A DNA stretch of 64,000 nt, taken from contig OY970354.1 of the NCBI GenBank assembly GCA_963718515.1, forward strand, positions 46,363 through 110,362, written 5' to 3'. Below are positions 12,105-62,984 of the stretch, piece after piece (position 1 is the first letter of the stretch; each line of letters starts with the position of its first letter). Made by a program: the position numbers and the translations under genes. The DNA is from an uncultured bacterium. Its GTDB lineage: Bacteria > Patescibacteriota > Minisyncoccia > UBA6257 > 2-01-FULL-56-20. The notes below the pieces were generated by a model that did not search any database, was not told the DNA's origin, and worked only from the letters and a program-made list of their open reading frames with translations.

Positions 12105-13823
12105 TCACGCCTCCTCTGTTTCTCTAATAATTTCTTCTATGGAGACGATGCCTTTGAGCGCTTTTACGATACCGTCCTGGCGAAGGGTTATCATTCCCTG
12201 TTTTTTTGCCTGCTCAGTGATCTTTTGCGTGGTGACGCCAGTGTTGATACTATTTTCCACTTCTTTGGTCACAAGAAACGCTTCATATATCCCGGTTCTT
12301 CCTAATACGCCACGCCCCTTACATGTGGCACATCCTTGCGAATGATAGATCTGATACGGCGCAGTGAACTCCGCTTTGACGTCCGGAGAAAGATCTTCCA
12401 GAGCGGTTGCTGATCACTTTCTGTACCTCCGGCGACGCCGCTTCCGCAGATTTACAATCTGGACACAGGACGCCGACAAGACGCTGGGCGATCACCAGGT
12501 TAAGCGAGACAGGAAGGAGAAATGGCTCTACCTTAAGATCGATAAGACGTGGGATGACGCCGGCGGCGTTGTTCGTGTGGAGCGTGGAAAGCACGACGTG
12601 CCCCGTGAGCGCCGCCTGCACCGCAAGCCCGGCGGTCTCGCCGTCGCGGATCTCGCCGACCATGATCACGTCCGGATCCTGCCGCAATATCTGGCGCAAT
12701 CCCGACGCGAAGTCGTAGCCGATCTCCGGCCGCACTTGGGATTGGTTGATGCCTGAAACAAAATATTCCACCGGGTCTTCAAGGCTCACGATGTTCACGT
12801 CTTCCGTATTGAGCGTCTGGAGGAATGCGTACAGCGTTGTCGTTTTTCCGGAACCGGTGGGGCCGGTGATGAGCACCATGCCGAACGGCTTTGCAAGGCC
12901 TTTCTTGATGGTCTCGCGTGTGCGGTCGAGCAGGTCAACTTATCAAAACTTTTTAAACCGGTCGAAGGATCGAGCACGCGGATGACGATCTTCTCGCCGA
13001 GCGGCGTAGGGAATGTGGCGACACGAAAATCGATGTCACGGTCGAATAATTTTGCGCGGAAGCGGCCGTCCTGCGGCACGCGGTTCTCGTCGATTTTAAG
13101 GCTCGCGACCACTTTTATGCGCGAAGCGATCGGTTGCGCAAGCTCCGCAGGAAGGGATGCCACTTGATGCAGATCGCCGTCAATGCGCAAGCGGATGCGC
13201 AATGATTTTTGCTGGGGCTCAATGTGCACATCGGATGCTTTATTGAGCACCGCCTCTTTGAATGTATCAGCGACGATCTTGATGATCGGCGCATCCTCGC
13301 TCGCGCCTCCCTCGAGCTCGATCGCCTGCTGGCCACCCGTGCCTTCTTTTATATTAAGCGACTGCACCGCCTGCTCGATCTGCGCGCGGAACGGCGAATA
13401 TTTTCTGAGCACTGCCTGGAGGTCATTATATGAAATGAGATAGACGCCGAGATTGATGTGATTCTGCCGTGCGATGAACTTCATCGCTTCCTGCGCCTTC
13501 TCGTCATCCGGATGAAACATGCCGATCACGAGCAGATTATCCTGCAAGCTGATGGGGATCGCCTGATAAATGCGCGCGGTCTCTTCCGGCACGATCCCCA
13601 TCAACTTGGCATCGATCGTCTCGGGATCTATTTTTTTATAGGGGACCTTGAGCAGTTCGCTCTTAAGCTCCGCCATTTTTTCATCAGGAACGATGCGTTC
13701 GCGCCCGATGATGTCTTCGGCGGATTCGTTGTTCACGACCGCATCGCGCTTGAGCCGTGCCACGATCACATCGGTGATCAATCCCCGGCTTCGCAGTTGT
13801 TGGAGAAGTTCATCGCTCGTCAT
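12105..13823 (-). pseudogene. pilB: type IV pilus assembly ATPase PilB (GspE family), frame-disrupted
   Basis: Fragments are 12795..13823 and 12319..12879, plus a third frame that carries ALEDLSPDVKAEFTAPYQIYHSQGCATCKGRGVLGRTGIYEAF to a TGA at 12107-12105. The frame changes lie near 12940 and 12405. Walker A is GPTGSGKTT. Confidence 0.8.
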
Positions 13824-13846
13824 ACTTTCATTCTACCACGACGAAC

Positions 13847-13911
13847 AAAAAGAGGCGGTCATTATTACCTCCCCGCAGATGATAGTTCGGTAATGATGAC
13901 CGCCTCTTTTT
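13847..13911. terminator. long bidirectional hairpin, loop family A
   Basis: 23-bp stem AAAAAGAGGCGGTCATTATTACC / GGTAATGATGACCGCCTCTTTTT with one G-T pair. The 19-nt loop is TCCCCGCAGATGATAGTTC (13870-13888). An A-run precedes it and a T-run follows. Confidence 0.7.
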
Positions 13912-13931: not shown

Positions 13932-14231
13932 CTAAGGAGCTATGAACGGATTCGTACGTCCCACTGCGGCGGGGCCCTGCGGCGACGGCAAGGCAATAGT
14001 AGAGTGCAATGTCTGGAAGATCGATCCCTGCACGATGCTCTGCGGATTCAGCGAAAGCTGGGTGATCGGGGCTATGTTGCTCAATGTTCCCGTCTCGGGG
14101 ATCACGACCAGCTCGGGCTGTGCAAAAAAGATATAATAGACCGCGCCCGCCACGAGCGCGAGAAATACAAGCCATGCACCGATGGCGAAAATATCTGTCC
14201 TTTTCTTTCCTTCTTCTATGACGATTGCCAT
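13932..14231 (-). CDS. small membrane protein of the pilus operon
   Basis: 99-aa ORF with one TM helix (IFAIGAWLVFLALVAGAVYYIFF). It lies between the pilO-like gene and pilB. Confidence 0.55.
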   Translation of the reverse strand: MAIVIEEGKKRTDIFAIGAWLVFLALVAGAVYYIFFAQPELVVIPETGTLSNIAPITQLSLNPQSIVQGSIFQTLHSTIALPSPQGPAAVGRTNPFIAP

Positions 14232-24854: not shown

Positions 24855-24890
24855 TGGATGCTGGACCAGGTCTACTGTGTATAAACTAAC

Positions 24891-24953
24891 AAAAGAAACC
24901 GGCGTGTTCGCCGAACTATCATCTGCCGGGAGGCGAACACGCCGCTTTCTTTT
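24891..24953 (-). terminator. long hairpin terminator, loop family A, 6 nt downstream of tRNA-Arg(GCG)
   Basis: The stem is 22 bp with one mismatch. In minus sense the 19-nt loop reads TCCCGGCAGATGATAGTTC, which matches the loop at 13870-13888 at 18 of 19 positions. Confidence 0.7.
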
Positions 24954-24959
24954 GTTTTG

Positions 24960-25031
24960 TGCCCCCGCGAAGAATCGAACTTCGATTACAAGATCCGCAA
25001 TCTTGCGTCCTATCCGTTGAACGACGAGGGC
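24960..25031 (-). tRNA. tRNA-Arg (anticodon GCG)
   Basis: A manual cloverleaf gives acceptor GCCCTCG/CGGGGGC, anticodon stem CAAGA/TCTTG, loop TTGCGGA and T-arm CGAAG-TTCGATT-CTTCG. No encoded CCA. Confidence 0.8.
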
Positions 25032-26064: not shown

Positions 26065-29000
26065 CTAGAACTGGCCGCCGACCGGAGACGTCAGACTGAC
26101 GACCGTGATCGGTACCTCATTCGAAGTCAAGCCAATGATCGACGTCGTACCATTCGAACCATCGACATACGTGAAGTCGTTGGAACCATTAATGGTCGCG
26201 TTGAGTGATTGAGCCTGTTGGGCAATTGCCGGAATCTGGCTCAAGTCAGCCCACAGCGTGAACGTGTACGAACTGCCTGCGGTTATGACCGGCGACTTGT
26301 TCGTTGACGTCGCGAAGTTCCACTGGATGCTGTTGGAAGATGTAGCTTCCGTAGCCCAGAGGTCGGACGTTACGATGTTGTTGCCGCTCGTATCCTTCAG
26401 CACGATCGAGTTGACGAAGCCTGGCGTCGTCGTAGCAGCAGCACCACCAAGCGTCAGTTTCAGCGTGCTCGGAATGTTGTCACCCGCAGCGTTTGAAGTG
26501 AAGGTGATCGAACCGATCTGCTGGTTTGGAGACGCCGGAGGCAAGCTCGAAGCCGAAGAAGCTGACACCGCGAGGATGCTTCGCAAGGTCGTCTGGAGGT
26601 TGCCATTCGCACCTGAGAGGGTCACCCCGGCGGTCTTGTTCGACGTTGCACCACGAGCAACCACAGCGAGTGATGTCGTGCTGTTATTCGAATCAGTCGT
26701 CGTTGCGATCTCAAACTGCGAGGTCGTGTTATCCGAGAGCGAACCGTTGGTGTACGATCCCGCATTGCCCTTGAGGGTAAGCGTGACCGAATTGCCCTGC
26801 GGAACGATCAACGGATTGGTGAAGCTGTTGAAGACATAGATGTAACCCGTACCCGACGCATCAGGGGTCGGCGATTGAGCAGTGCCGAGTTCCGTGGAAC
26901 CATTCCACAAACTGACATTGCTGAACGCGGCCTTGACGGTCGTGGTTGCGGAAACCACATCCAAGACATTCAACTGCGTAACCTTTACGTTCTCAACGTT
27001 CGAAGTTTCCGTGAAGCGGAAGGCTGCGAGCGTGTCACCCGTGGAGTTCTGGACGATCTGGCCTGCCGGAGGATTGCTCGAATCTGCAGCAATCGTCAAG
27101 GAAGGATTACCGTTGAAGCTCACCGTCTGGCCGGCATACGTGGTGTTGCTCGGGATATTCACCGAAGTGAACGAAACCGCGCCGCTACCCGTGTAACCGA
27201 CAAGCGATGTCGCAGGGGTAAACGTGCCCGTTGCCGAAGACAACGAATCCGCATACACATCAACATTGATCGTCTGACCGGCCGGGACGTTGAAGGCCGA
27301 ACCCGAGAAGGAATACGTTCCTTCACCGGATACCACTCCTTGTGTCGTACCGAACTGCGTTCCATTCACCAAAACTTTGAGGTTCTGGAATGCAGATGCG
27401 GTGCTGTTAGGAGTGAGCTCAACGCTTACCGTGTTAACGTTCACGCCTTCAGCCGAAGAAGCGCTGAATGCGTATGAACCGATCCTGATGCCCGTCGTAC
27501 CAGCGGAAACATTCTGGCTTCCGAGAGCGTTGTTCGTCGATACCGACAAGCTCGAAGATACGAGCGTCAACGAGACACCCGATACGCCGGAAGTGTTGGC
27601 TGTGCGGCTGGACGTCATACCCTGCAAGTTGCTGTTATCGCCCGTCAAATTGGCGACGATACTAGAGAAACTTGCTGTGGTCTGAATATCCGCTTTGATG
27701 CTGAGGACACGTGTCGTGTTCGCCGGAACAATGTAATTGATCGGCGAAGCGGACGTGCCAAAGCAGTCATTGTAGACACCAGTGCCTGTCGAAGTCGAGT
27801 AGCTGGCTACTGCAGCCGTACCAATGGTACCGCTACCCGATGCGCAGTCATTGCTTGACGGAGGCTGGTTGATCGTAGTGCCAACCTGATTGCCTGCATC
27901 ATCGGTGATCTCAACATTTTGGATCTGTTGGTTAAGAGCCAAAGTGTTGTTCTGGCCGGAGAGTTGGATGTTGAAGTCGAGGTACTTTACCTTGACCGGT
28001 TCACCCGCTGCATAGACATCGTACTTAGCCAACACTACGCCGGATTGACCCTTTGCAATGTTGCCCGTCGGGGTGTTCGAATCCTGAGTGACAGTGATCT
28101 GTCCCGTCAAGATATTCACCGGGGTTCCGGGACCGCTAATGTTGTTGATCGAGACCGGAACGTTATACTGGCTGTCAACAGCCAAAACATCGTAGCCGTT
28201 CAAGATCTCGAACTGGAAGAAGTCGCTCGGAGAACCCATTACGTCAGCAACGATCTGAACATTGTTGTTTCCCGTGTTCAGCTTCGCCGGAGCGGCGGAA
28301 GCATCGAAGTCGGCGAGGCCCGAGGCCGGAACCGAAGCCAATGTTGCGCCAACCTGCGTGCCGTTCACGAGCAACTTTACGTTCTGGAGGTTCGCATTAT
28401 TTGCGGAACCAATGACGTGGAAGTTGATGTTATTCAACCATACAGGGCTGTTGCCAACCGTGAAGTTCCACGAACCAACAATGTTGCCCTGCGTACCAGC
28501 CGTCACGGTCGTACCGATTGAGGTCGAAGCGACGGATACGGTTGCGAGGGAAGGATTCGTGACGGACGTTACCGTGAAGACATTACCCGTCAACGGGAAC
28601 AAGCCGGTCGAAGTGATCGCATTGTTGTTGGCATCCCACGCGGTCACATCAGATGCCGCCGGCATAGCGAAGGCAGTGGTGTTACCCGCGGAGAGACCGC
28701 CCGAAATATCAATCGCGAGCGTGAGCGTGACGGTCTGGCCTGCCGGAATCGACAAGGTCATACCGGAGAAGCTCAATAAGCCCGAGTTGAGCGAATTGTA
28801 CTGGGAGAGCACCTGACCATTCTCGATCAAGTATGCACCAGAAATTGCGCTATCCGACGAGAACGCCCGTCTTCTGGAAGTTTACGCCAGAGAGGGTTAC
28901 CGCGCCCGAGTTGCCGGCGGTGAAATTCACTGCCAACACCGGAACGCGCGCCGAACCCGAGCTTGCGCTCGAGATCAACGAGCCGGCCGCCGGATTAGTG

Positions 29001-29502
29001 GAAGCCAAGCTGACCTGCAAACCGGTCGCCGGAGCGGTCACCGTAGTGCCCGTGCCAGTCGTGGTCGTAGTGCCCGTCGAGCTCATCGAATTGACGAACG
29101 CGCGGGTCTTAGGACCGAAGTAACCTACCGAAGGGGTGATACCGTTCGCCGCCTGGAACTTCCGCGAGCGCTGACTGTGTGAGGGCGCCGAAGTAACCGG
29201 TCGGGGCAGAGACTGCCGTAAGATATCCCTTTGCAATCAGGAGCGACTGGAGTGCCGAAACCTGCGAGCCTGTGGAACCAACGGTGAGGTCGCTGGTAAA
29301 GTCATAGGTCATCGCGGTCGTCGCCGCTGCCAGAAGTTCCCAATTGGCTTTGAAGCTGTTGGATCTGCGCGAGCAAAGCCGCGATCTGAGCCTGGAGGCT
29401 CGCCGTGGACTGTGCATTCGCGAGAGGCAACGCGGCTGCGCCAACCATCCACAATACTGTGGTGGCGGTGAGTGCCGCTGAAACCAATTTTTTATAATTC
29501 AT
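26065..29502 (-). pseudogene. giant surface protein (signal peptide, coiled segment, PG_binding_1-like domain, long Ig-like beta-rich body) with three frame changes confined to its 5' 700 nt
   Basis: The fragments are 29302..29502 (MNYKKLVSAALTATTVLWMVGAAALPLANAQ), 29109..29444, 28850..29236 and 26065..28830. The homologous N-terminal module of the 21578..24793 protein is reconstructed only by joining frames. Confidence 0.7.
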
Positions 29503-29721
29503 TTTTAATTTAATTATCGATTTATTATTGGTATCGACCTGAGAATCCTTTATGGACTCTGTGAGCCGTCGACCTTGCCGTGCACCAAATCACGTTTTTG
29601 TTTTCTTGTTTCAGGAACCGTTTCCGGCACTTCACTCTATTCGCTCGAACGGCCGCCTCGTGAGGGAAAGCGACGACCGATCAAATAGAAGAGAGCGACG
29701 AAAACGGGGTTGATTATCTAA

Positions 29722-29814
29722 AAAAGAAAAAACTCGCTTTTGGCGAGGCTGAAAAAACAAGAAAATCGACCATCAAAAAGTCCATTCTCTGCGGTTCAGC
29801 CTCACACCGAACCT
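29722..29814 (-). ncRNA. possible short transcript or leader ending at an internal terminator
   Basis: In minus sense a TTGACC-N19-TATAAT promoter (29851-29821) is followed by a GGCTGAA...TTCAGCC helix and then CTCGC-caaaa-GCGAG plus TTTTTTCTTTTTT (29749-29720). The spacer is long, so the promoter call is weak. Confidence 0.25.
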
Positions 29815-29948
29815 TTTACTATTATACTGTCCGCTATGAGAAAAGGGTCAAATTAACTGGGGAAAACTTCCCCAGAACCCCCTACTTCTCACGGCACATT
29901 AGATAACGTCCGAGCGGATGAAAGGTTACCCTATTTCGCCCAAAAAGT

Positions 29949-30644
29949 CTATGCCGCCTGGGTCACCCGATAGAACACCGACGGTCCAGCGATTCCCACC
30001 CGCTCAATGAGATTTTGTTCAAGGAGTGTTTGTAAATCATAGCGAATAGTTCTCTCACTGCATTCCGGCAAAATTTCCTGAATATCTTTCAATCGGCAAT
30101 TGCCGGATTGCCGGATTCTATCCAAAATTGCCGTTTGCCGGATTGCCGATTTCAATATGCTGTTTATATTACTTGGCTGGTTTTGTTCTTCTTCCGTTGC
30201 CGGTTCTTCTATTTTTGCCGGTTCGATTGCCGATTGCCGGATTATTGCCGGTTCGGACTTTTTTGCCGGTTCAGGTTTCTGGAACGGTTCGCGCTCCGAT
30301 TTAGAGAATATTTCGGCAACGTCTATTTCCTGTCTTTTTACCTTATTCTTTGATTCGGCAATTGCCACATCCAGGACATATATCTCCTGAAGGATAATAT
30401 TGCTATTGGCAATCGCTATAAGGTTCACGTCTCCCGCAAACTTTATAAGGCACTCTGTGACCCGGAGAGATCGCTCCGCCATCGCATAATCCTCCGCCGT
30501 TGCCGCTTCCAACAATCCGGCACCACCTGCCCGGAGCCTTTCGGAAAAATCTTTTTCCTGCATATTCGCCGCCAAACGAAAGATCGCATAGGCTATCTCA
30601 TACGATTTGGTGAGAATAAAACGCTCTTTGCCGGATTCTTTCAT
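29949..30644 (-). CDS. DeoR-type winged-helix regulator with an N-terminal helical-bundle domain and an EPA-rich linker
   Basis: ORF 29949..30680 trimmed to the ATG at 30644. The C-terminus ILDRIRQSGNCRLKDIQEILPECSERTIRYDLQTLLEQNLIERVG matches the DeoR HTH pattern. Confidence 0.6.
   Translation of the reverse strand: MKESGKERFILTKSYEIAYAIFRLAANMQEKDFSERLRAGGAGLLEAATAEDYAMAERSLRVTECLIKFAGDVNLIAIANSNIILQEIYVLDVAIAESKNKVKRQEIDVAEIFSKSEREPFQKPEPAKKSEPAIIRQSAIEPAKIEEPATEEEQNQPSNINSILKSAIRQTAILDRIRQSGNCRLKDIQEILPECSERTIRYDLQTLLEQNLIERVGIAGPSVFYRVTQAA
30096..30117 (+). repeat. left copy of a 22-nt perfect inverted repeat GCAATTGCCGGATTGCCGGATT
   Basis: Its exact reverse complement occurs at 30657-30678. 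This copy lies inside the coding sequence and encodes IRQSGNC. Confidence 0.9.
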
Positions 30645-30651
30645 ATGGCGG

Positions 30652-30680
30652 ATTATAATCCGGCAATCCGGCAATTGCAA
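30652..30680 (-). promoter_or_regulatory. consensus-like promoter TTGCAA-N17-TATAAT ending 7 nt before the ATG (leaderless geometry)
   Basis: -35 at 30680-30675, -10 at 30657-30652, ATG at 30644. Confidence 0.6.
30657..30678 (-). repeat. right copy of the 22-nt inverted repeat, forming the promoter spacer of the same gene
   Basis: The plus strand reads aatccggcaatccggcaattgc. It overlaps the TTGCAA -35 box and abuts the TATAAT -10 box. Confidence 0.9.
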
Positions 30681-30704
30681 GAAATACGGCCTTTTGCCGG
30701 ATTG

Positions 30705-31419
30705 CTATAATACCCAGCGAGCGGAGGCGGTGACGATGACGAGCAGGGTAAAAATGATGGCGGACGTGGCGAATATCTTCTCCCGGGAAAGCTCGCCAAA
30801 AATGTAGCGGGGCACGAGATCGATAAATATCGTGGCGATAAGGAATACAATTGCCGATTGATAAACAAAGTCGAGCGGAAGGAAAAGTCCAACGATCAAG
30901 ACCTGCCATATAAGAACGAACGAAACCCAGCTCATCATGCGCACGAACGCGCGGCCTTCTTCGGGCGAGACCGCGAAATTTTTTACGAAGCTCGATGCCA
31001 TCGCGCTCATTGCCCATGCGACGAGAAGGCTGTATAGAAGCGACAGGCCCCCAAAATCTCCGCCCGCTTTCATGAAAAAGCTCCGCACCAGCAAATACGT
31101 GAGTATAAGCACAAGGATCTCATATGCCGACTTGCGATCGATGATGAGGAGATCCTTTATGAGAAGTATGAGGTAAAAAATACCGGCAAGGAGGACGGCA
31201 AAGAAGAGGTTCGGCGCCTCAAGAAGAGAAATAACAAGCACAACCAAAAACGGCAGCCGCAACCCTTCCGCTTCCTGCGATTGGGAAGAAATAGAGATAA
31301 AGCGCGACGAAGAAAAACAACCAGAATGGGAGCGCCAGCCACGCGGCGGCAAAAACAACGGCCCTAAGAACTAAAGACCAATGAATTCGCTTTAAAATTG
31401 ACTTTAACTTTTCCGCCAT
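30705..31419 (-). pseudogene. polytopic membrane protein, one frame change near 31260
   Basis: The N-terminal part (MAEKLKSILKRIHWSLVLRAVVFAAAWLALPFWLFFFVALYLYFFPI) lies in ORF 31219..31461. The rest lies in ORF 30705..31358. The start is uncertain because it overlaps the clpB 3' end. Confidence 0.5.
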
Positions 31420-34050
31420 CTTTGAATTCGCCGCGGATGATCTTATCCGCCAACCTATCAAGGATAACCTTCTGCATCAATCGCTTCAAGGGGCGCGCGC
31501 CATACTCCGCGCTGAAGCCTTCCTTTGCAAGGTGCGCGCGCGCGGCCGGCTCGATCTCGAGCTTGATGTGGCGGTCCGCCAGGCGCTTTTCGATGAGCTT
31601 GATCTGGATGTCCACGATCTTCTCGATATCCGCTCTTGCGAAGCGGGTTGAAGATGACGACGTCATCGATACGGTTCAAGAACTCCGGGCGGAAGCTGCG
31701 ATCGCAATGCCTCCATCACTTTTTCGCGATAATCCCCTTCCTCGAGCGATGCTTCGTTATCTTCCGAGCTAAAACCAATGCGCGACATGGCCTTGAGATA
31801 TTCGCTTCCAACGTTCGACGTCATGATGATGATCGAGTTCTTGAAGTTGACGGTCTTGCCCTTGCTATCGGTAAGGCGGCCATTGTCGAGCACTTGCAAA
31901 AGCAAGTTGAACACTTCCGGATGCGCCTTTTCGATCTCGTCAAAAAGGATCAGGCTGTATGGCCGATGGCGCACGATCTCGGTGAGCTGGCCGCCTTCTT
32001 CGTGGCCCACATAGCCCGGAGGCGAGCCGATCAACCGGCTGACCGCATGCCGCTCCATATATTCGGACATATCCACGCGCACGAGCGCCTTTTCATCGTT
32101 GAACATAAATTCCGCGAGCGCCCGCGCGAGCTCGGTTTTGCCGACGCCGGTCGGGCCGAGGAACATGAACGATCCGATCGGGCGGTTCTCATCCGAAAGC
32201 CCCGCGCGCGAGCGGCGCAATGCCGACGCGACGGAAGCGATCGCCTCGTCCTGGCCGATCACCCGTTCGCGCAAAACCTCTTCGATGCGAATCAGCTTGT
32301 CGCGTATCGGTCTCAAGCATCCGCTTTAAAGGAATGCCGGTCCAAACAGCGACGACCGCGGCAACGTCCTCTTTATCCACTGATTCCTTTAAGGAACCTG
32401 TCGGTCGTGGCGCCGGTTGCCGTGGCGGATGAGGAATTCTTTGATTTCCGCGATTTTGCCGCTGCCGGGCCGCCAAAATTCTTCTTTTCGAACATCTGAA
32501 AATCCTTCTCGGCTGCGGGCAATTCGCCATAAATGATCTGCGCCACACGCTCAAGATTGCCTTCACGCTCGGCCACTTCCGCCTCGCGCTTTAAGTTATC
32601 CACTTTTTGGCGAAGCTGGTGCAAAGTCTCGAATTTTATCTTTTCCGAATGCCATTTGCTTGAAAGCTCGTCGTTCTGCTCTTTTAATAGCGCGAGTTGT
32701 TTATCGATCTCTTTGATCCGCTCGTGGTGACGCTTTTCTGCCCTTCTTTGACAAGCGCCTGCTTTTCGATCTCCAGGCGCGTGATCTCGCGGCGCGCCTG
32801 GTCAATTTCTTTCGGCAAACTCTCCGATCCAAGCCGGCGCGCCGCGGCGGCTTCGTCGATAAGATCCACCGCTTTATCCGGCAAAAAACGGTCGGTGATG
32901 TAACGCGCGGAAAGATTGACGGCCTCGATGATGGCCTCGTCGCTGATGCGCATGCCATGATGGATCTCATATTTTTCTTTAAGCCCGCGCAAAATAGAGA
33001 TCGAATCCTCGATCGATCGGCTCCTCTACTATGATCGGCTGGAAGCGCCGCTCGAGCGCCGGATCCTTCTCTATATATTTCTGATATTCGCGGATGGTCG
33101 TCGCGCCGATCGCGTGCAGTTCGCCGCGCGCAAGCGCCGGCTTGAGCAAATTCGAAGCATCGATCGCGCCTTCGGCGGCACCCGCGCCGACGATCGTGTG
33201 GATCTCATCTATAAATAAGATAATATTGCCGGCCGCGTTCTTCACTTCTTTCATAAACGCTTTCAAGCGATCTTCAAATTCGCCGCGGAATTTTGTTCCG
33301 GCGATGAGCGATCCGAGATCGAGCATCAACACCTGCTTGCCCTTAAGAAGCTCCGGCACGTCGCCCGAGGCGATGCGCTGAGCCAATCCCTCTACGATTG
33401 CGGTCTTTCCAACGCCCGGCTCGCCGATAAGGCACGGATTGTTCTTGGTGCGGCGCGAAAGCACCTGCATCAAGCGGCGCAATTCTTCCTCGCGGCCGAT
33501 CACCGGATCAAGCTCGCCTGCCTTGGCTTTGTCGCTCAAATTGATCGCATATTTTTCCAACACCTGGAATTTGCTCTCCGGCGTTTCGTCCGTGACGCGC
33601 ACCGAACCGCGCAACTGCGCCAAAACCCGGAAAGCGCTCTCGCGGCGGACGCCAAATTTTTCAAGCAACGATTTTGCCGTACCTTGCACATCGAGGAGCG
33701 CCAGCAAAAGATGTTCGCACGAAACAAATTCATCTTTTTGCTGCGCAGCAATCTTTGCCGCCTGGTCGAGCACTTTCATCAATTCCTGCGAAAGATAGAG
33801 CTGGCCGAGCGCGGAATTGCTCACGATGGGCGGAATGCGATCGAGCTCGAGTCTCGATCTGTTCATCCAGCTGTTCGAGATTGACCCCGGAGCGCTCGAG
33901 CACCGGAATGACGAGCGACTGCTCGTCTTCTAATAACGCCGCAAGCAAATGAAGCGATTTCAACTCGCCATGATTCTTCTTTGCCGCGATCTCCTGCGCA
34001 TTCTGCAAGGCTTCCTGCGCTTTTATAGTGAAACGGTGAAAGTTTGGCAT
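31364..34050 (-). pseudogene. clpB: ClpB chaperone (AAA+ disaggregase), multiply frame-disrupted
   Basis: The homology passes through fragments 33730..34050, 32979..33866, 32684..32992, 32373..32624, 31663..32316 and 31364..31666. Both Walker A motifs are present ([16 protein letters not shown]), as is the middle coiled-coil. At least five frame changes. Confidence 0.85.
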
Positions 34051-42094: not shown

Positions 42095-42120
42095 ATAACA
42101 CTCATTTTACCATATAAAAC

Positions 42121-42181
42121 AAAAAGCCCTCTCCTTTGGCCGAATTATTCTTATCACGAGGCCAAAGGAGAGGGCTTTTTG
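42121..42181 (-). terminator. long hairpin terminator, loop family B, directly after pnp
   Basis: The 21-bp perfect stem is AAAAAGCCCTCTCCTTTGGCC / GGCCAAAGGAGAGGGCTTTTT. The 18-nt loop is GAATTATTCTTATCACGA (42142-42159). Confidence 0.7.
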
Positions 42182-42183
42182 TT

Positions 42184-44333
42184 TTATACCTCCATCTGCT
42201 TCAGCGACAAGCCGATTTTCCCGTTCTCTGCTTTGATGATCTTTGCGCGGACGCGGTCGCCGAGATGCACGACGTTTTCCACCTGCTTCACAAATCCCTG
42301 CTTGAGCTCCGAGACGTGGATCATGCCGTCGTTGCCGCCGCCGAGATCGACGATCGCGCCGAACTCGAGGATCTTCACGATCGGCCCTTCAACGATCTCG
42401 CCCACTTTGAATTCTTTGGTAAGACCCAAAATCTCCGCGACCGCGGCTTCGACTTTCGCAAGGTCAACGCCGGAGACATACACTCCGCCGTCTTCTTCTA
42501 TATCAATGCCAGCGAGTGAATATTTTGCGATAAGGCCATTGATCATTTTGCCGCCAGGGCCGATAACGGTGCCGATCTTCGCCGGATCGATCTTGAACTG
42601 GCGGATCTTCGGCACGAACTGCGAGATCGCATCGCGATGTTTTGGTAATGTCGCCTTGATCGTTTTCAAAATATGGATGCGCGCGGCTGCTTTGCCTGTT
42701 CAAACGCTTCTTCCAATATCTCCATAGTGAGTCCGTCCACTTTGACATCCATCTGCATGCCGGTCACGCCATCGTTCGTTCCCGCAACTTTGAGATCCAT
42801 ATCGCCATGATGGTCTTCGGGGCCTTGGATGTCGGTCAGCACTTTGTAATTATTCACATCGGCCATACCGTCCGCATTGAACGCCATCATGAGTCCCATC
42901 GCGATGCCCGCGGCCGGCTTCTTGAGCGGCACGCCGGCGTCCATGAGCGAGAGCGACGGACGCGCACACTGTCGCCATGCGAGGACGAACCGTTGGATGA
43001 CATGATTTCCGAAACAACACGGATCGTGTACGGGAATTCTTCCTTGCTCGGGATCAATCGCTCAAGCGATTTGCGCGCAAGATTGCCATGGCCGATCTCG
43101 CGGCGCCCGGGCCGCGGAATGAACCGACTTCGCCAACCGAGAACGGCGGGAAGTTGTAGTGCAACATAAAACGCCGCTTGCCGGTGGTCTCCATCGTCTC
43201 GATCATCTGCTCGGCTCCGGGCGCCGCGAGCGTCGTTATCGCGAGCGCCTGCGTATTGCCGCGCACAAAAAGCGCCGAGCCGTGCGTGCGCGAGAACAAT
43301 CCCACTTCGCCATCAAGCGCGCGAACTTCGTCAAGCTTGCGGCCATCGGGACGCTGTTCCTTTTCTAAAACATTCTTATGGACAAGGTCATTCACCATCT
43401 CGTCGTAGAAAAATTCCACCGCCTTCCAATTGATACTTGTCTTTCGTGGCGCCGAACTTTTCTTTGATGTGCAGAATGAGCTCGTGATGGAGCGCGCCGA
43501 CCGCGGTCGTGTGTTCCACTTTTGTCGGCTTATAGATCGCCGCCTCGAGCTTGTCCGCCAGGAACGCGCGCACTTCCGCCTGAATGTCGGCATCGGGCTC
43601 TGCGAGCGCAACCTCCGTCTTTGGCTTACCGATCTCCTTCCGGATGTTCTCCTGGAACGCGATCAGCTTGTTGATCTCGCCCTGCGCGAGCGTGAAGCCC
43701 GCGACGACGTCTTTCTCTTGCGCATCCAAGCCGCCAAGCTCGATCATGTTGATGCGATCCTTGGAGCCGGAAACGAACGCATCGAATATCGGCAGGTTCG
43801 GTTCGGCGACGGCGCTGTTATCCGGATTGATGATAAATTGTTTGTCCGCAGTTTTTTGCGCGACGCGCACACCCGCCACCGGGCCATTCCATGGGATGTC
43901 GGAGATAAAGAGCGCGGTCGAAACGCCGAGCAGTCCGACGAATTCCGGATCGTTCTGCTCATCGATCTGCAATACCGTCACGACCACCTGTATCTCGCGG
44001 CGCATTTTGTCGTTGAAGAGCGGGCGGATGGTGCGGTCGACCAAGTCGGCCGGCGAGGATCGCCTCTTCGGACGAGCGGCCTTCGCGGCGCACATAGCGG
44101 CTGCCCAAAATTTTTCCTGCGGCATAGAACTTTTCTTCATAATCCACTTTGAGCGGCAGGTAATCGATGTCGCTATCCTTACGCGCCATCACCGCCGTCG
44201 CGAGTACCACTGTCTCGCCATACTTTGCGATCACTGCCGCATTCGCCTGCTCGGCCAACGCCGAAATCTCTATCGTCAACGTCTTTCCTGCGATCTCAAC
44301 CGAAAATGCTTTTTTTGCAACATATATTTTGAT
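42184..44333 (-). pseudogene. pnp: polynucleotide phosphorylase, multiply frame-disrupted
   Basis: The homology runs through fragments 43959..44279, 43388..44140, 43054..43611, 42666..42944 and 42184..42669 (KH and S1 domains at the end). The likely ATG at 44333 is out of frame across an A7 run. At least five frame changes. Confidence 0.85.
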
Positions 44334-44349
44334 GATGAACCGCGAACCC

Positions 44350-44440
44350 GGAGAGTTCTGTCATCCTGAGCTTTAGGAAGGATCGCTTGTAATGGCTACT
44401 TTGCCATCGGATCCCGCACAAAGCTCGGAATGACATCTCC
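44350..44440 (-). promoter_or_regulatory. long imperfect hairpin in the pnp 5' leader
   Basis: In minus sense GGAGATGTCATTCCGAGCTTT pairs with AAAGCTCAGGATGACAGAACTCTCC, about 20 bp with a 4-nt bulge and a 45-nt loop. It ends 16 nt before the ATG. Confidence 0.45.
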
Positions 44441-44472
44441 TTTATCGCGCTTCGTGTTAGTTTAATTATTTT

Positions 44473-45160
44473 TTAATGACTGTCCGACTGCGGCCTCTTG
44501 CTTCTCCCCACAAACCGCGGCTTCATGATCGCGCGCGGGACGGTCTCAATATTTACGAACTCGTCCGCGGCTTCCACGATCTTTGATGATGCGCTCCGTC
44601 TGAATGCGGCGACCTCGACCACTCGCCCGCCTCCCCATTTTACGTAATTGACCAACGGAATAAAATCGCCGTCGCCCGTCACCAAAATGATCACATCGAG
44701 GAACGGCATCATGCGGATGACGTCCACCGTCAGGCCAACATCCCAATCGCCTTTCTTCATGCCGCCGGCGTAGATCTGCAAGTCTTTCATGCGCAATTCA
44801 AGTCCGGCTTTTTCGAGAGCTTCAAAGAAGCTTGCTTCAGAAGATGCGCCGCCGCTCGAATCGCCATTGCCGCTACCACTACCATTCCCATTTGCCGACG
44901 CCGGCGCGAGCGAAACTGCCGCCGCCTGATCCTTTTCCGCCATGCGCGCGTGCGCGCCACGCGCCTGCTGCGGCTCCACGCCTTCACTCCGCACCACGTA
45001 CGCCATGGCGCGGATCAGCTGGCGGCCGCCGACAAGGTGCTTTATAAGTTCCGCATAATTGACGCGGCCCTGATATAGATTTTTTGCTGAGTGATACAGA
45101 TTCGACACATCAACAAAAATCCCAACACGCTGGTTGGAATAATTTGGTTCCTTGCTTCAT
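44473..45160 (-). pseudogene. NYN-domain (LabA-like) nuclease family protein, probable frame change near 45135
   Basis: ORF 44473..45108 carries the DWDVGLTVD and VTGDGDF motifs. The first strand, NQRVGIFVDVSNLYH, is only open upstream in the same frame without a start codon. An ATG at 45160 lies in another frame. Confidence 0.6.
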
Positions 45161-45166
45161 TATTTT

Positions 45167-45427
45167 TTAAGATCGAGCTTCTTGATCAAGTTTTTCGTAC
45201 GAAGAAGGCTCGTGCTTCTTCATGTACGCGAGCAGTTTTCTGCGCTTTGAGACCATCTTCAAAAGGCCGCGGCGGGAATGATTATCCTTCGGATTTTTCT
45301 TGAGATGTCCGGCCAATTCATCGATCTGGCGGGAGGTCATCGCGATCTGCACCTGGGCAGAACCCGTGTCTTTATCGTGTTTCTTATTTTCCCCGACGAT
45401 GCGGGATTTTACTCGTTTAGTAAGCAT
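45167..45427 (-). CDS. rpsO: 30S ribosomal protein S15
   Basis: 86 aa. The segment TGSAQVQIAMTSRQIDELAGHLKKNPKDNHSRRGLLKMVSKRRKLLAYM is a canonical S15 core. The last ~7 residues may be affected by a 1-nt indel. Confidence 0.85.
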   Translation of the reverse strand: MLTKRVKSRIVGENKKHDKDTGSAQVQIAMTSRQIDELAGHLKKNPKDNHSRRGLLKMVSKRRKLLAYMKKHEPSSYEKLDQEARS

Positions 45428-45467
45428 TATTTGGAATGATACATCAAAGTCAGAATTTTAGCAAGGG

Positions 45468-45708
45468 CAAAAGAAAATCGCCGCCTTGTGAGAAGCGGCG
45501 ATTGTTGGGAGGGCGAATGCCCTATTCGCGGTTAAGCTCCCGATCGGGAGTGTAAGAGATGATGAGTCGTACTGCAGGGCCGCCAGACCTATGGATGCTA
45601 CCAATGGTCGATCCGAGAACAAAGTCAGCGAACCCGCACGCCTTCAGAAGCCCCCTGCCGACAAACCGCAAAGCCTTCATACCCCGACCCCCCAAAAAAA
45701 CTCGCTCT
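45468..45708 (-). ncRNA. promoter- and terminator-bounded ~240-nt transcript upstream of rpsO (leader or independent RNA), class unknown
   Basis: It starts about 7 nt after the TATAGT box. Hairpins are CTCCC-gatc-GGGAG and GCGAAT-agggc-ATTCGC. A 5' G-run could pair with the 3' CCCTCCC. It ends at AATCGCCGC-loop-GCGGCGATT plus TTTTCTTTT (45503-45468). The overlapping ORF 45522..45908 has no convincing RBS. Confidence 0.4.
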
Positions 45709-45714
45709 AAGAAC

Positions 45715-45743
45715 ACTATACTATTTCCGCTCTCTGCGGTCAA
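45715..45743 (-). promoter_or_regulatory. promoter TTGACC-N17-TATAGT
   Basis: -35 at 45743-45738 and -10 at 45720-45715. It is divergent from the xer promoter. Confidence 0.6.
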
Positions 45744-45779
45744 AAAACATTGTGCGACACATCGGCGTATAATGAAGCT

Positions 45780-46726
45780 ATGGCAGAAAAAGTGACGGCA
45801 AAAAAAACTGTTCCAAAGACGGAGATCGAGCGGCTCCTCCAAGATTATTTGAATTATCTCGAGATCGAAAAAAATCGGTCGCCGAAGACGAGCGAGAACT
45901 ATAAGCACTATCTCGGCGAATTCTTGAAATTTGCAAAAATATCCCGGCCTGACGAAATCACGGACAGCGTGGTGCGCGAGTTCCGTTTAGCGCTCGCGCG
46001 GCGCGAAGGCCTTAAGCGCATCACGCAGGGATACTACGTGATCGCCTTGCGTAATTTTTTGAAGTATTTAGCGCGGCGCGATATCAAGGCGCTCTCGGCG
46101 GAAAAGATCGAGCTCCCCAAAGTGCCCGGACGCCAGATCGACACGCTTGAGTATGGTGACCTTGAGCGCCTACTCGCCGCTCCAAAGGGCGATTCACTCC
46201 GCGACCTGCGCGACAAAGCAATCCTCGAAATGTTTTTCTCGACCGGCCTGCGTCTCGCCGAGCTCTGCGCACTCCCCCGTGGGATCGACCTCAAGCGCGG
46301 TGAAATGTCCGTGCGTGGCAAGGGCGACAAACTGCGCGTCGTATTCATCTCCGACTCCGCGCGTGAGGCGGTGAAGCGCTATCTTGGGCGCGCGCGGCAA
46401 AGGGCGGTGGCGATGCCATAGAGGAAAAGTTGTTCGTCAGCCTCGACCGGCGCGGCAACGTGATCGGCCCCATCACCCCGCGCGCCGTCCAGCGCCTCGT
46501 CGCCGCGCGTGCCGTCCAAGCCGGCATCCCCAAGCATATCCATGCGCATCTGCTCCGCCACAGCTTCGCCACCGATCTATTGGTGAACGGTGCCGACCTG
46601 CGCTCCGTGCAAGAGCTCCTCGGCCACGCAAATATTTCAACAACGCAGGTCTACACTCACCTCACGAACAAGCAGTTGCGCGAAACACACAAGGCGTTCC
46701 ACGGAGTGAGGAGAGTAGAAAAATAA
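45780..46726 (+). pseudogene. xerC: tyrosine recombinase XerC/XerD family, one frame change near 46400-46425
   Basis: The N-terminal SAM-like and core domains lie in ORF 45750..46421 (ATG at 45780 preferred). The catalytic C-terminus ([12 protein letters not shown]...[15 protein letters not shown]) lies in ORF 46430..46726. Confidence 0.8.
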
Positions 46727-46730
46727 AACG

Positions 46731-46790
46731 CATAGCTATTGAGCGAGTGGACGTTCCTACGTCGGAGCGAAATAGCTATGGGTTTTTATT
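46731..46790 (+). terminator. terminator after the xer gene
   Basis: 10-bp stem CATAGCTATT/AATAGCTATG with a 30-nt structured loop, followed by GGTTTTTATTTT. Confidence 0.5.
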
Positions 46791-46927
46791 TTGCAGCGGT
46801 GCAGGAGATGGGACGAAGTTGGAACTATCGTCGCCCTAAGTTATATATAGGATTTTAGCAGGAATTTTTTATCAGGGCTACTCGCGATTAGGATTGCGTA
46901 GTTTCCGCGAAGGATTATACTTTTCGT

Positions 46928-47668
46928 ATGTTCACGCCAAAAACCAAGAGGATCGACGAGCTGGCAAAGAAATTCCCCGACCGGATTGCCGAACTGGAAG
47001 GCATTTTCAATCAGAAAACGAATGTCTATATCGACTATGCCAACATCAGGCCTTGGGCGAATAAATTAGGATGGCACATTGAACCACGACGATTGAAGCA
47101 ATTTTTGGATTCTTTTGATACCGTTCATGCAGTTAATTTTTATAACGGCACATTGACGGGCGATTCTGATTCCGAAGTTTTTATGGCTGAGATAAGGCGG
47201 TATGGCTTCAATGTCCATACGAAGCCGGTCAAGAAGATGAAGCTCTCTATCGACGTTTCAAGTATCCCGTCCAATTCACCGGATATTCTAAAGGATTTTA
47301 TTCGTAAGCCCTTACTCCAGAAACTCAAGATTGAAACAACCGAATTTTTGAATGGCCAACTGAAAGACCTGAACAGCCAAGGGGTTTTATTCATCGAAGA
47401 CCTCAAGTGTAATTTTGACGTGGAAATCGGCAGAGATATGCTGCTTGATGATAAAAATAGGGTAACCAGCTTTGTGCTTTGGAGTGGCGACAGCGATTTC
47501 GCCGATCCAGTTCAGCAATTATTGGGCGATGGCAAAAGAGTCGTTTTATTCGCGACGGCCCGCCGCGTTTCTTCGGAACTTAACGCGCTCACCCACAAAG
47601 GACTATTCATTTTCGATATTCAAAAGATCAGAGATTTTATCTGCTGGAAAAAAGAAATAGCCCCATAA
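46928..47668 (+). CDS. NYN-domain (LabA-like) nuclease family protein
   Basis: 246 aa. Motifs are VYIDYANIRPWA, NFDVEIGRDML and LWSGDSDFADPV. The promoter TTGCGT-N16-TATACT ends 6 nt before the ATG. Confidence 0.7.
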   Translation: MFTPKTKRIDELAKKFPDRIAELEGIFNQKTNVYIDYANIRPWANKLGWHIEPRRLKQFLDSFDTVHAVNFYNGTLTGDSDSEVFMAEIRRYGFNVHTKPVKKMKLSIDVSSIPSNSPDILKDFIRKPLLQKLKIETTEFLNGQLKDLNSQGVLFIEDLKCNFDVEIGRDMLLDDKNRVTSFVLWSGDSDFADPVQQLLGDGKRVVLFATARRVSSELNALTHKGLFIFDIQKIRDFICWKKEIAP

Positions 47669-47674
47669 AATTGC

Positions 47675-47712
47675 AAAGGGGACTCCTTTCGGAGCCCCCA
47701 AGCTTTTGATTT
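47675..47712. terminator. bidirectional terminator between convergent genes
   Basis: GGGGACTCC-tttc-GGAGCCCCC with one mismatch. An A-run lies on one side and T-rich sequence on the other. Confidence 0.55.
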
Positions 47713-47859
47713 CGTGATCATTACTGATCCCTATCAGGTTATTGCAAAGCGAGCCGCTTGTCAATAACCCTTAATTAATACCGGGATTTATTAGGTTTTG
47801 TTTCAGGGGGCTATAGCTGGATACCAACGGGCTGCCAGTGAGATCAGAAGCACAACTTT

Positions 47860-49479: not shown

Positions 49480-49691
49480 CGTTGTATCGATTTCTTGATT
49501 TCCGCCAGCTTCTCTTGCCGCAGGACTTCAACGAAATTTGATATGATGTTATCTCGACGTTTTTTCAATTCAATCAGCCGCCCAACATGCCTTTGCTTGA
49601 TTGCGTCAATTTTTTTATTCTTTTGTTCGTCAACGGCTGACATACAACCCAGTTTACATGCTTTTCCCCTCATTTTCAACGGCAGGTCCAC
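49476..49691 (-). CDS. small basic coiled-coil-like hypothetical protein
   Basis: The 71-aa ORF is translationally coupled to 47860..49479. The true start may be the internal Met at 49643. Confidence 0.4.
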   Translation of the reverse strand: MDLPLKMRGKACKLGCMSAVDEQKNKKIDAIKQRHVGRLIELKKRRDNIISNFVEVLRQEKLAEIKKSIQR

Positions 49692-49837
49692 TTCACTGGA
49701 CTTTCCGTATCCGTCCCCGCTATACTAAGCTTGCGCGAACGCGCAGCCATCCGATTATGGCGCACGTTACCAAGCGTAGTATAGATTCCCGACGCATCCC
49801 TGATGCGCCGTTTTTGTATCTGGTAAAATGAAGCAAT

Positions 49838-50521
49838 ATGTTGCGGTATCTGTTCACGTCAAAGTATTTCAAATACGGTCTCAGTTTGACGCTTTTGGGA
49901 GCCCTCGGCATAGCCCTCTTCGGCGTGTTCCGCATCGCCGCTTTTTCATATTTCGGCCCGATCACTTTGCCCTACACGACGCCGATTGACGACATTTCAG
50001 CCATCCTCTTTTTCGGCGGCTTGCCCGTCTTTGAAGCCATCGCTTTGCATAAATGGCTGTATGGCGACATACGACAGGAAATAGAAGCGAGAGAACAGAA
50101 CCAAGCGACAGTTTCAGTGCAAGAAATCGCTCCGGCTGTTGCGACTTTGGCGGCAGCGACCATCATGCCAGTTGCCGCGCCCGTCGCCACCCCTTCCACC
50201 ACCACCGATCTTGTTTTTATGGACGAAGAAGGCATTTTGAGACTTGACAACACGACCGCTGAACTGCCAGCCATGAAAAGCGAGCATCTGCTCTGCCGCG
50301 CCATGTTCAAGTATCCGGTGGGCAAGTTGGTTGATTGGACTATCCCCTATGAGGAGATGACGGGCGAGGAGCTGAACAAGGTGAACTATCCCGACGAATA
50401 TTGGAAAGCATGGCACTCGCTTTATGACACGACGAAAGCATTGAACACACGAGTGAACGAAGGGCTTGGCATTGAGCGCTTGGTGAAATGGAAAGACAAC
50501 ACATTGCAACGGACAAGGTAG
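49838..50521 (+). CDS. membrane protein with a possible C-terminal winged-helix-like domain
   Basis: 227 aa with two N-terminal TM helices. The C-terminal ~90 aa loosely resemble an OmpR-type DNA-binding domain, with low confidence. Confidence 0.45.
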   Translation: MLRYLFTSKYFKYGLSLTLLGALGIALFGVFRIAAFSYFGPITLPYTTPIDDISAILFFGGLPVFEAIALHKWLYGDIRQEIEAREQNQATVSVQEIAPAVATLAAATIMPVAAPVATPSTTTDLVFMDEEGILRLDNTTAELPAMKSEHLLCRAMFKYPVGKLVDWTIPYEEMTGEELNKVNYPDEYWKAWHSLYDTTKALNTRVNEGLGIERLVKWKDNTLQRTR

Positions 50522-50595
50522 ATTTTCGTCGTCGTTTTTCGTTTGAGTCAAACGATTCAAACCCAGTCAAATAGCTGTCCGGTACGCTTCATCAT

Positions 50596-50790
50596 GTGAA
50601 GCGCCAATTTTCCGAACAACTTATCTCGCGCATGATCGAATATGCGCACCGCAAATGGAACCTACGCATTTCAGAAGACGAAGCGGAGGAACGTTTGCGT
50701 TCCCTTGCGAGCGTCTACATCACCGTCTCGAAGATTCGGGCGCGGAAGCACAAGGAAAAGTTAGACGACAACCAAACCCATGCAAGTTAA
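50596..50790 (+). CDS. small hypothetical protein
   Basis: The 64-aa ORF has a GTG start and overlaps the next ORF by 11 nt. Confidence 0.3.
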   Translation: MKRQFSEQLISRMIEYAHRKWNLRISEDEAEERLRSLASVYITVSKIRARKHKEKLDDNQTHAS

Positions 50791-53075: not shown

Positions 53076-53096
53076 AAATCTTCTCCGAGGGCCGAA

Positions 53097-62914: not shown

Positions 62915-62984
62915 AAAAAAGAGGGACAGATGTTTTCAGCAAATTATTCTTATCACGAGTTGAAAACATCTGCCCCTCTTTTTT
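62915..62984. terminator. long bidirectional hairpin, loop family B, between convergent tRNA-Phe and tRNA-Arg
   Basis: The ~26-bp stem AAAAAAGAGGGACAGATGTTTTCAGC / GTTGAAAACATCTGCCCCTCTTTTTT has one mismatch and one G-T pair. The 18-nt loop is AAATTATTCTTATCACGA (62941-62958). Confidence 0.7.

Follow-up and report, generated by a model that had tools for sequence, protein, structure and literature searches.

A 64,000-nt stretch of contig OY970354.1 from an uncultured bacterium of the Patescibacteriota (hereafter the window) holds three hairpins, one of them at positions 13847-13911, that belong to a dispersed family with a near-constant 19-nt loop on stems of variable sequence. Members of this family, here called family A, occur in other Patescibacteria as well, mostly directly at the 3' ends of genes and tRNA genes. 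We put at about 0.5 the probability that they are dispersed terminator cassettes, specific to Patescibacteria and similar to repetitive extragenic palindromic (REP) elements, whose loop is held constant by a sequence-specific reader. No description of the 19-nt loop motif was found in the full-text literature, and family A hairpins appear to be undescribed.

A hairpin family with a constant loop and variable stems

Each window hairpin consists of an A-run, a near-perfect inverted repeat around a 19-nt spacer, and a T-run, with a loop of the form TCCNNNCAGATGAYMGTTC:

13847-13911, plus strand: copy 1, whole hairpin, AAAAAGAGGCGGTCATTATTACC / tccccgcagatgatagttc / GGTAATGATGACCGCCTCTTTTT
13847..13869, plus strand: 5' arm of copy 1, an A-run followed by an 18-nt stem; pairs with 13889-13911 over 23 bp including one T-G
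13870..13888, plus strand: loop of copy 1, TCCCCGCAGATGATAGTTC, 19 nt, 'TA' subtype, antisense to the pil genes
13889..13911, plus strand: 3' arm and T-run of copy 1, inverted-repeat partner of the 5' arm
24888..24956, minus strand: copy 2, whole hairpin, with the loop at 24913-24931 (minus-strand reading tcccggcagatgatagttc / TCCCGGCAGATGATAGTTC); covariance model score 77 bits
62714..62778, plus strand: copy 3, whole hairpin, with the loop at 62737-62755 (tccagacagatgaccgttc / TCCAGACAGATGACCGTTC), 'CC' subtype; covariance model score 76.6 bits

The stems of copies 1, 2 and 3 are 23, 25 and 21 bp long and 96-100% complementary, a C:G pair closes the loop in all three, and the loops of copies 2 and 3 match that of copy 1 at 18/19 and 14/19 positions, respectively. 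The loop lengths, closing pairs and identities had been reported in an initial annotation of the same DNA and proved correct base for base. The degenerate pattern TCCNNNCAGATGANNGTTC has three exact matches in the window, a number attained by none of 100 shuffled windows (mean 0.47 with 2 mismatches permitted). Predicted folding energies were -36 to -41 kcal/mol per hairpin (z of about -7 to -8), and copy 1 reached a covariance model score of 68.6 bits in plus-strand and 30.9 bits in minus-strand reading.

We scanned one genome per Genome Taxonomy Database (GTDB) species with the pattern CCTCCNNNCAGATGANNGTTCGG and obtained 56 loci, with the window's own genome absent from the matches. About 45 of them lay in nine metagenome-assembled genomes (MAGs) of the candidate phyla radiation (CPR) labelled Paceibacterota, Parcubacteria, Minisyncoccia and similar ('Candidatus Paceibacterota' resolves to phylum Minisyncoccota), and nearly all of these formed the apex of 17-37-bp hairpins with A/T runs. 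About 10 single matches in Proteobacteria, Chloroflexota and other phyla were stemless and fit chance, as by our own estimate (18 fixed bases, 1.2e12 positions) about 17 would be expected. At least 19 strict-pattern copies were present in MAG MFD04780.bin.2.65, and the window has 3 copies per 64 kb. A second scan, of metagenome contigs, left the central 12 nt free (TCGCCTCC-N12-GTTCGGCGA) and returned 121 matches, of which 75 had stems of at most 11 bp and random centres and 46 were long-stemmed. All 46 long-stemmed matches had CAGATGA or a 1-2-base variant although the centre was free, and the conservation of the loop centre was therefore not imposed by the search. After removal of duplicates, 86 distinct copies from the nine MAGs and the metagenomes could be aligned without gaps. 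The motif thus recurs beyond the window, and the conserved loop on variable stems that the initial annotation had described as the reverse of REP elements holds over all 86 copies. Viral contigs gave no pattern match, on which ground a phage origin was rejected. In Rfam, only tRNAs in the window passed the gathering thresholds; an E-value search with the hairpin gave generic microRNA-hairpin models as the best hits, all sub-threshold (22 bits, with 67-99 required).

The unit spans about 65 nt and comprises an A-run of about 9 nt, a G+C-rich 14-bp stem, a loop that is always 19 nt long and a T-run of about 9 nt. In about 80% of 84 copies the A-run starts at -15 and the T-run at +15 (A in 66-69/84 copies at -15 to -17, T in 65-68/84 at +15 to +17), which sets the length of the G+C-rich stem at 14 bp; A-T pairs extend it to about 23 bp. 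The loop consensus is UCC NNN CAGAUGA YM GUUC with two closing C-G pairs, and the apical pairs read C-G, C-G, G-C, C-G, U-A and Y-R. Loop and apex have an information content of about 2 bits, as against 0.05-0.46 bits at stem positions -7 to -14, where the 5' arm is pyrimidine-rich. That the stems share no sequence, as initially stated, is true of copies 1-3; over the wider family they have a weak consensus and a fixed length. Within the loop, positions 1-3, 7-13 and 16-19 are nearly invariant, and positions 4-6 and 14-15 are variable and linked into subtypes (A/G at 4 with CC at 14-15; a pyrimidine at 4 with TA), both of which coexist in single genomes and interchange at orthologous sites.

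RNAfold predicted only marginal 2-3-bp pairings inside the loop. An inner loop helix (pairs 3-16, 4-15, 5-14 and 6-13) was rejected because pair 4-15 is unpaired in 76/86 copies. By inspection the loop fits neither a kink-turn or box C/D motif, a T-loop, anticodon-loop mimicry, the CsrA GGA motif nor group II intron domain 5. Derivation of the motif from a tRNA was also discarded, as the best match (12/13 nt, at the variable-loop/T-arm junction of one tRNA-Arg among 95) is probably due to chance. An apparent likeness of GGCAGAUGAC to E. coli 4.5S RNA is presumably coincidental.

Position and orientation at the ends of transcription units

Flanks usable for determining the genomic position were available for 84 distinct copies. 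In 60/84, the 3' end of a gene or tRNA was no more than 40 nt away on the loop-sense 5' side, and the hairpin base was separated from the stop codon or tRNA end by a median distance of 0, mostly between -10 and +11. Among copies with a 3' end on one side only, 48 were sense and 9 antisense (binomial p = 1.5e-7); 12 copies lay between convergent genes. The hairpins capped 26 of the 77 tRNA genes in these loci at the 3' end, 22 in sense and 4 in antisense orientation. The alignments also showed that the next gene past the hairpin often begins after an extended -10-like element, TGnTATAAT, and a very short leader. Family A hairpins hence fill the slot of intrinsic terminators between transcription units, and from this position, together with the form of a hairpin followed by a T-run, we infer terminator function. 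Like intrinsic terminators, including bidirectional ones, they combine an A-run, a G+C-rich hairpin and a T-run and lie where transcription units end, often in the narrow gap between convergent genes or immediately ahead of the next promoter. Unlike them, with their arbitrary loops of 3-8 nt, they have a 19-nt loop that is conserved in sequence in all copies and a stem of constant length (14 bp, or 23 bp when the A-T pairs are counted), and they form a recognisable repeat family.

The surroundings of the window copies include the following features:

13932..14231, minus strand: 99-aa membrane-type open reading frame (ORF), last gene of the pilM/pilN-side operon; stop 20 nt from copy 1
13830..13838, minus strand: extended -10-like element TGGTAGAAT, read from the sequence, between copy 1 and the pilB start codon
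12795..13823, minus strand: N-terminal part of PilB (MshEN + T2SSE); start 23 nt from copy 1; frameshifted, continues in 12319-12879
24959..25031, minus strand: tRNA-Arg(gcg), capped at its 3' end by copy 2

Copy 1 does lie between the pil operon and pilB with its loop antisense to both, as the initial annotation had it. The element TGGTAGAAT is a putative promoter element for pilB, and the order of hairpin, TGnTATAAT and ATG at the pilB site recurs in loci L020, L022, L041, L057 and L049. Copy 2 begins 2 nt past tRNA-Arg(gcg) and is sense to it. Copy 3, in sense orientation to an S1-domain (rpsA-like) gene, begins at that gene's TAA and has tRNA-Phe 44 nt downstream; orthologues of this hairpin are present in L036 and L123. 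Copies 1 and 2 lie 11 kb apart in a uniformly minus-strand gene block and have opposite orientations, so a strict coupling to the replication strand fails here.

Start codons 6-12 nt past TGnTA(T/G)AAT, with no obvious -35 element, were seen in the window (13830-13838, minus strand) and in L041, L022, L057 and L049, which suggests that genes after these hairpins are transcribed as leaderless or near-leaderless mRNAs in this lineage. Separately, cumulative GC skew peaks at about 28000-32000 of the window, being slightly positive before and negative after, and within a few kb beyond this region gene orientation changes from mostly minus to mixed or plus.

Evolution of stem and loop

Flank alignments yielded 32 orthologous pairs of hairpins, of which 23 were non-identical, with a mean flank identity of 81%. 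In these 23 pairs the loop was the least diverged part (10.5%), followed by the apical 6 bp (16.7%), the flanks (about 19%) and the lower 8 bp of the stem (39.9%); the loop thus changed at about a quarter of the rate of the lower stem, and was also slower than the mostly coding flanks. A ligand that reads the presented loop, one of three explanations offered in the initial annotation, best explains this slow divergence, although no such ligand was identified. A loop without function, similar among copies merely through recent common descent or gene conversion, would be in keeping with the linked subtypes and the narrow taxonomic range. We regard it as highly improbable, since genomes with no more than 55-63% identity between their PilB proteins still have the conserved loop in common, and since it diverges more slowly than the mostly coding flanks. 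Judging from the requirements of RecA, which make homologous conversion inefficient on identity as short as 31 nt, the 31 nt shared by the copies would also be too short to be converted efficiently.

The arms of the stem change together, indels included, as seen for example between the hairpins past the S1 gene in the window and L036. Stem changes in the 23 pairs were two-sided in 88 cases and one-sided in 17. Over the 23 stem pairs, 94.3% of cells were paired and 581 cells had changed on both sides, a value attained in none of 500 shuffles, and controls in which the arms were slid paired at 46-51%. The stem would be required only to pair, and the arms probably change together through templated repair or template switching inside the palindrome.

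Such repair would also explain stems that creep into neighbouring genes. In four loci the 3' arm includes the complement of the 3' end of the upstream tRNA, CCA included:

Stems running 5-16 nt into the tRNA acceptor/CCA end: L002, 4023-4099; L013, 965-1051; L037, 1596-1664; L039, 4925-5019

In L068 and L045 a pilus ATPase gene is affected in the same way, the complement of its last codons being part of the 3' arm. The initial proposal that stems are built from flanking DNA is borne out to the extent that the outer stem sometimes lies in a tRNA end or last codons, but not for the core stem, which is absent from empty sites (see below). In precursor transcripts of the four tRNA loci, the long helix would compete with the tRNA acceptor stem.

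Turnover of whole hairpins and inversion of the loop

Comparison of orthologous intergenic regions, which the initial annotation had recommended, revealed presence, absence and exchange of whole hairpins. In L055 a complete hairpin lies between a stop codon and a tRNA-Pro promoter, and the collinear site in L006, with flanks 82-88% identical, is empty and lacks the core stem; the hairpin past tRNA-Pro is common to both loci, with three compensated stem changes. L036 has a copy after tRNA-Pro and the window has none. At another site the family A hairpin of L057 corresponds to an ordinary terminator in L049 that is unrelated in sequence, its stem measuring 5 bp and its loop 5 nt. The whole hairpin is therefore the unit of change, which argues against a miniature element dropping into hairpin apices, as had been considered initially. 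An element of 19-31 nt inserting into existing terminator hairpins would account for a conserved part made up of only the loop and about 6 apical bp, but the empty site in L006 is without the whole hairpin rather than the loop alone, the 5-bp stem in L049 bears no relation to that in L057, and a fixed 14-bp stem would not be expected if arbitrary host terminators had been the targets. This explanation has already largely failed and retains very little probability.

Similar stem 'types', for instance AAAATACCCGCTTCGCC, are found again at sites that are not orthologous, in the same genome and in different ones (e.g., L008/L053 and L003/L010), and copy 3 of the window has its stem type in common with a family B hairpin (described below). 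Their recurrence suggests paralogous spread, and convergence on a favoured terminator stem could also produce it.

The loop was inverted in 4/32 orthologous pairs. At the pilO|pilB site it is sense in L035, a 'Paceibacterota' MAG locus collinear with the window over 9.8-17.9 kb (about 78-82% amino-acid identity), and antisense in the window, L119 and L121. As the stems of L121 and L035 are similar and their loops inverted, it was the spacer between the arms that became inverted. Copy 1 of the window is consequently an exception, a flipped site within a sense-biased family.

Conservation of the loop whatever its orientation in some orthologue sets, and the frequent position of copies directly upstream of the next promoter, would also be expected of a 19-bp double-stranded DNA site in terminator spacers, bound by a global regulator or a nucleoid protein or serving as an uptake signal for the competence pilus. 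CPR bacteria rely on DNA uptake, and the DNA uptake sequence (DUS) of Neisseria and the uptake signal sequence (USS) of Haemophilus, both naturally competent, are short conserved motifs enriched in terminators. However, in 1.24 Mb the family A motif was found nowhere outside the apices of long hairpins, whereas uptake and operator sites are also located within genes and away from palindromes. Terminators with DUS or USS carry the motif in the stem as inverted pairs, while family A has a single copy that is the loop itself, and the fixed geometry of a 14-bp stem and a 19-nt loop points to recognition of a folded hairpin. A duplex site is accordingly improbable.

Search for a reader of the loop

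We clustered 696 ORFs near the copies and annotated the recurrent families with Pfam. All recurrent families were housekeeping (PilB, PilC, ABC transporter, sigma factor, PheS, RluA-type pseudouridine synthase, MscL, PAP2 and topoisomerase I), and no transposase, HUH, integrase or Nop gene recurred beside the copies. Among the window ORFs scanned there was likewise no gene with a Nop domain, no transposase or HUH gene and no other suggestive gene. A trans-acting RNA partner was rejected: 1.24 Mb contained no complementary sequence or second context of the motif, and apex ten-mers outside the hairpins were at chance level and all in coding sequence.

In the literature, the stem-loop guide RNAs of TIGR-Tas systems (tigRNAs) came nearest to family A. 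Their loops carry two variable spacers between box C/D motifs, and they are encoded in arrays beside tas (PMC12045711; 10.64898/2026.09.09.750476). Like family A, tigRNAs are hairpins found in CPR bacteria with variable stems and conservation only beside the loop (PMC12045711; 10.64898/2026.09.09.750476), and the commonest family A loop has CCA and UG, the letters of the TasR boxes C and D. Family A as orphan guide-RNA units of this kind is nevertheless extremely improbable. Its loop is near-invariant, only 19 nt long and without a pair of variable spacers; copies are single and dispersed at gene ends rather than in arrays beside tas; the 'TA' subtype is without CCA; and no Nop-domain protein is among the window ORFs scanned. 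Membership in TIGR-Tas was rejected on the length and invariance of the loop and the want of arrays.

A proposed transcript reader or a possible mobile palindrome

The most likely role of the hairpins would be that of intrinsic, potentially bidirectional terminators and 3'-end hairpins. The unpaired loop would stay near-constant across species because a sequence-specific factor, presumably a protein, reads the presented hairpin. The loop is sense to the upstream gene in a ratio of about 5:1, and the reader would for this reason act mainly on the transcript, in termination efficiency or in 3'-end protection or processing; the sense bias and the 3'-end position both favour reading at this level. 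On DNA, the hairpins behave like REP-type units: they come and go as wholes or exchange with ordinary terminators, and recombination between the arms may invert the loop.

Several points weigh against this account. A hairpin with a 19-nt loop should fold slowly and make a weaker intrinsic terminator than the classical kind. Both runs, A and T, are equally strong, only about 1.8% of stem pairs are G-U, and isolated mismatches, under a symmetric definition, are 13 of G-U type and 14 of A-C type. An RNA helix selected on one strand tolerates G-U and purges A-C; the parity of the two, the near-perfect Watson-Crick pairing and the equal A/T runs indicate that the palindrome is kept perfect at the DNA level, and the stems point to DNA palindromes more than to RNA helices. 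Antisense copies keep a perfect loop across four orthologues (L007, L042, L078 and L112), which is unexpected if only the sense RNA matters. In addition, no reader of the loop was identified, and neither the flank families nor the window ORFs scanned suggest one. The copies were gathered with patterns that fix parts of the motif, and gene calls outside the window were crude (longest non-overlapping ORFs plus ARAGORN). The antisense orientation of copy 1 had initially been taken to speak against a purely RNA-level role. This argument has become weaker, given a family that is 48:9 sense and a site that is flipped relative to L035, but its DNA-level side gains from the Watson-Crick stems without G-U excess and from the antisense orthologues with a perfect loop.

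These observations bear on another possible, though clearly less probable, account, in which family A is a selfish or semi-selfish palindrome like REP elements or miniature inverted-repeat transposable elements (MITEs). The loop and apical stem would be the site of a DNA-hairpin enzyme encoded elsewhere, HUH-like or similar to REP-associated tyrosine transposases (RAYTs), or a recombinase; terminator activity would be tolerated or co-opted, and the orientation bias would reflect the strand that is single-stranded (the non-template strand or the lagging-strand template). In its favour are the almost purely Watson-Crick stems without G-U excess and the discrete, fixed-length unit, symmetric down to its A/T runs. 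The stem types shared by non-orthologous sites (L008/L053, L003/L010), the whole units that are present, absent or in place of another terminator at orthologous sites, the linked loop subtypes and the intact loop of antisense orthologues also speak for it, as does the restriction of the family to a small group of CPR genomes, each holding many copies. On the other hand, no transposase, HUH or integrase gene recurs near the copies, and the single clean pair of empty and filled sites (L006/L055) shows no target-site duplication. The near-zero spacing from 3' ends and the 5:1 sense bias would need selection or very specific insertion, and copies 1 and 2 are oppositely oriented in a one-strand gene block. 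The DNA-type stems, the turnover of whole units, the linked subtypes and the conserved antisense copies nonetheless keep a DNA-hairpin enzyme very much alive, and the accounts of a transcript reader and of a mobile element are not mutually exclusive.

A broader, more tentative and rather doubtful reading goes further. Family A may be a 'tagged terminator', a self-renewing cassette on a large share of the transcript ends of these CPR bacteria, including a third of their tRNA genes, whose loop docks a dedicated factor that either controls 3'-end formation, stability or processing genome-wide or propagates the cassette as DNA; two further hairpin families of the window, B and C (described below), would then be parallel tags for other readers. 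Control of 3' ends by such a factor would be a bacterial counterpart of the logic of the histone stem-loop and the stem-loop-binding protein (SLBP). The likeness to the histone mRNA 3' stem-loop is one of analogy only: there, too, a conserved apical hairpin ends many unrelated transcripts and one dedicated protein defines and protects the 3' end, but that structure is eukaryotic, with a 6-bp stem and a 4-nt loop, and family A differs from it in both structure and domain of life.

Among known DNA elements, REP elements and bacterial interspersed mosaic elements (BIMEs) come close to our preferred reading as terminator cassettes, being dispersed, lineage-specific extragenic palindromes with tens of copies per genome at gene 3' ends, subject to gain and loss and with possible roles in termination and mRNA stability. 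However, in REPs conservation lies in the stem and a 5' GTAG head and variation in the loop, the opposite of family A, and family A copies are single, unlike BIME clusters. No RAYT gene was present among the window ORFs scanned or the recurrent flank families, to which this search was confined. Compared with MITEs, family A arms are inverted repeats throughout, with no direct duplication visible at the single L006/L055 pair. Integron attC sites have R/L boxes at the stem base and a variable apex and are arrayed with intI, whereas family A is conserved at the apex and dispersed after housekeeping genes and tRNAs. The origin hairpins of HUH Rep proteins (geminiviruses, circoviruses and rolling-circle plasmids) also have a conserved loop on differing stems, read on the DNA hairpin by a sequence-specific enzyme, but this is a resemblance only: they occur once per replicon beside the rep gene, with a nonanucleotide loop or nick site (NANTATTAC or the plasmid equivalent), while family A has dozens of chromosomal copies at gene ends, a different 19-nt loop and no rep beside it.

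Patescibacteria make up a large share of bacterial diversity, are mostly uncultured, and have barely known termination, RNA processing and repeat biology. A sharply defined 65-nt element with a loop of invariant length lends itself to covariance model searches, pull-downs, metatranscriptome Term-seq and phylogenetic profiling. Its fixed loop and free but always paired stem reverse the rule of repeat families and constitute a natural experiment on how a palindrome is maintained in DNA while its single-stranded loop is under selection. A reader that is an RNA-binding protein would mean a new global 3'-end system, and one that is a DNA-hairpin enzyme a new kind of REP-like mobile element.

Related hairpins and other features of the window

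Two further hairpins in the window represent family B:

42113..42188, plus strand: family B hairpin, loop GAATTATTCTTATCACGA, with the same architecture of A-run, long stem and T-run; covariance model score 41.2 bits on the minus strand
62915..62984, plus strand: second family B hairpin, between the convergent tRNA-Phe and tRNA-Arg(tct) genes

Their loops share a core of 17 nt, AATTATTCTTATCACGA, which in opposite-strand reading (TCGTGATAAGAATAATTC) starts with TC and ends with TTC like the family A loop; the differences from family A are mostly transitions. The stem of family A copy 3 resembles that of the hairpin at 42113-42188, which may be a diverged relative in opposite-strand reading. 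Family B was absent from the 56 genome-scan loci (L001-L056), the set in which it was searched for.

Family C hairpins were seen in the window (46719-46792) and in L020 (6896-6957), with a 30-nt apex, GAGCGAGUGG-(4-bp stem, UCCN loop)-YGGAGCGA. The two genomes differ in the inner stem by covarying changes (ACGU/ACGU and CAGU/ACUG), and GAGCGA is repeated on both strands and could form tandem G-A pairs. Family C looks like a structured RNA or a protein-binding module on a similar terminator stem.

A short hairpin past tRNA-Val (63563-63620; AAAAAAACACCG / ctcccatcggaa / CGGTG) recalls family A in its A-run, its CACC stem start and its CTCCCAT loop start, particularly the divergent loop of L121 (TCCCATGGATGGATCGTTC). 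It may be a decayed or deleted family A copy, though the covariance model did not report it.

The window has a gene content typical of CPR bacteria, including genes for type IV pili and numerous large proteins that lack Pfam domains. Some genes are split by frameshifts. PilB (12319-13823) is present as two overlapping ORFs, a tyrosine recombinase (45750-46839) is split, and the S1-domain gene (61622-62716) loses its frame about 60 nt ahead of the TAA used by its L036 orthologue; these are either assembly indel errors or pseudogenes. The region at about 44000-56500 has a lower GC content (0.48-0.51) and encodes two NYN-domain nucleases, a tyrosine recombinase and three proteins resembling pilins of type IV secretion systems (T4SS), together with a Phage_rep_O-like ORF that overlaps tRNA-Leu. 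It may represent a mobile element integrated at tRNA-Leu.

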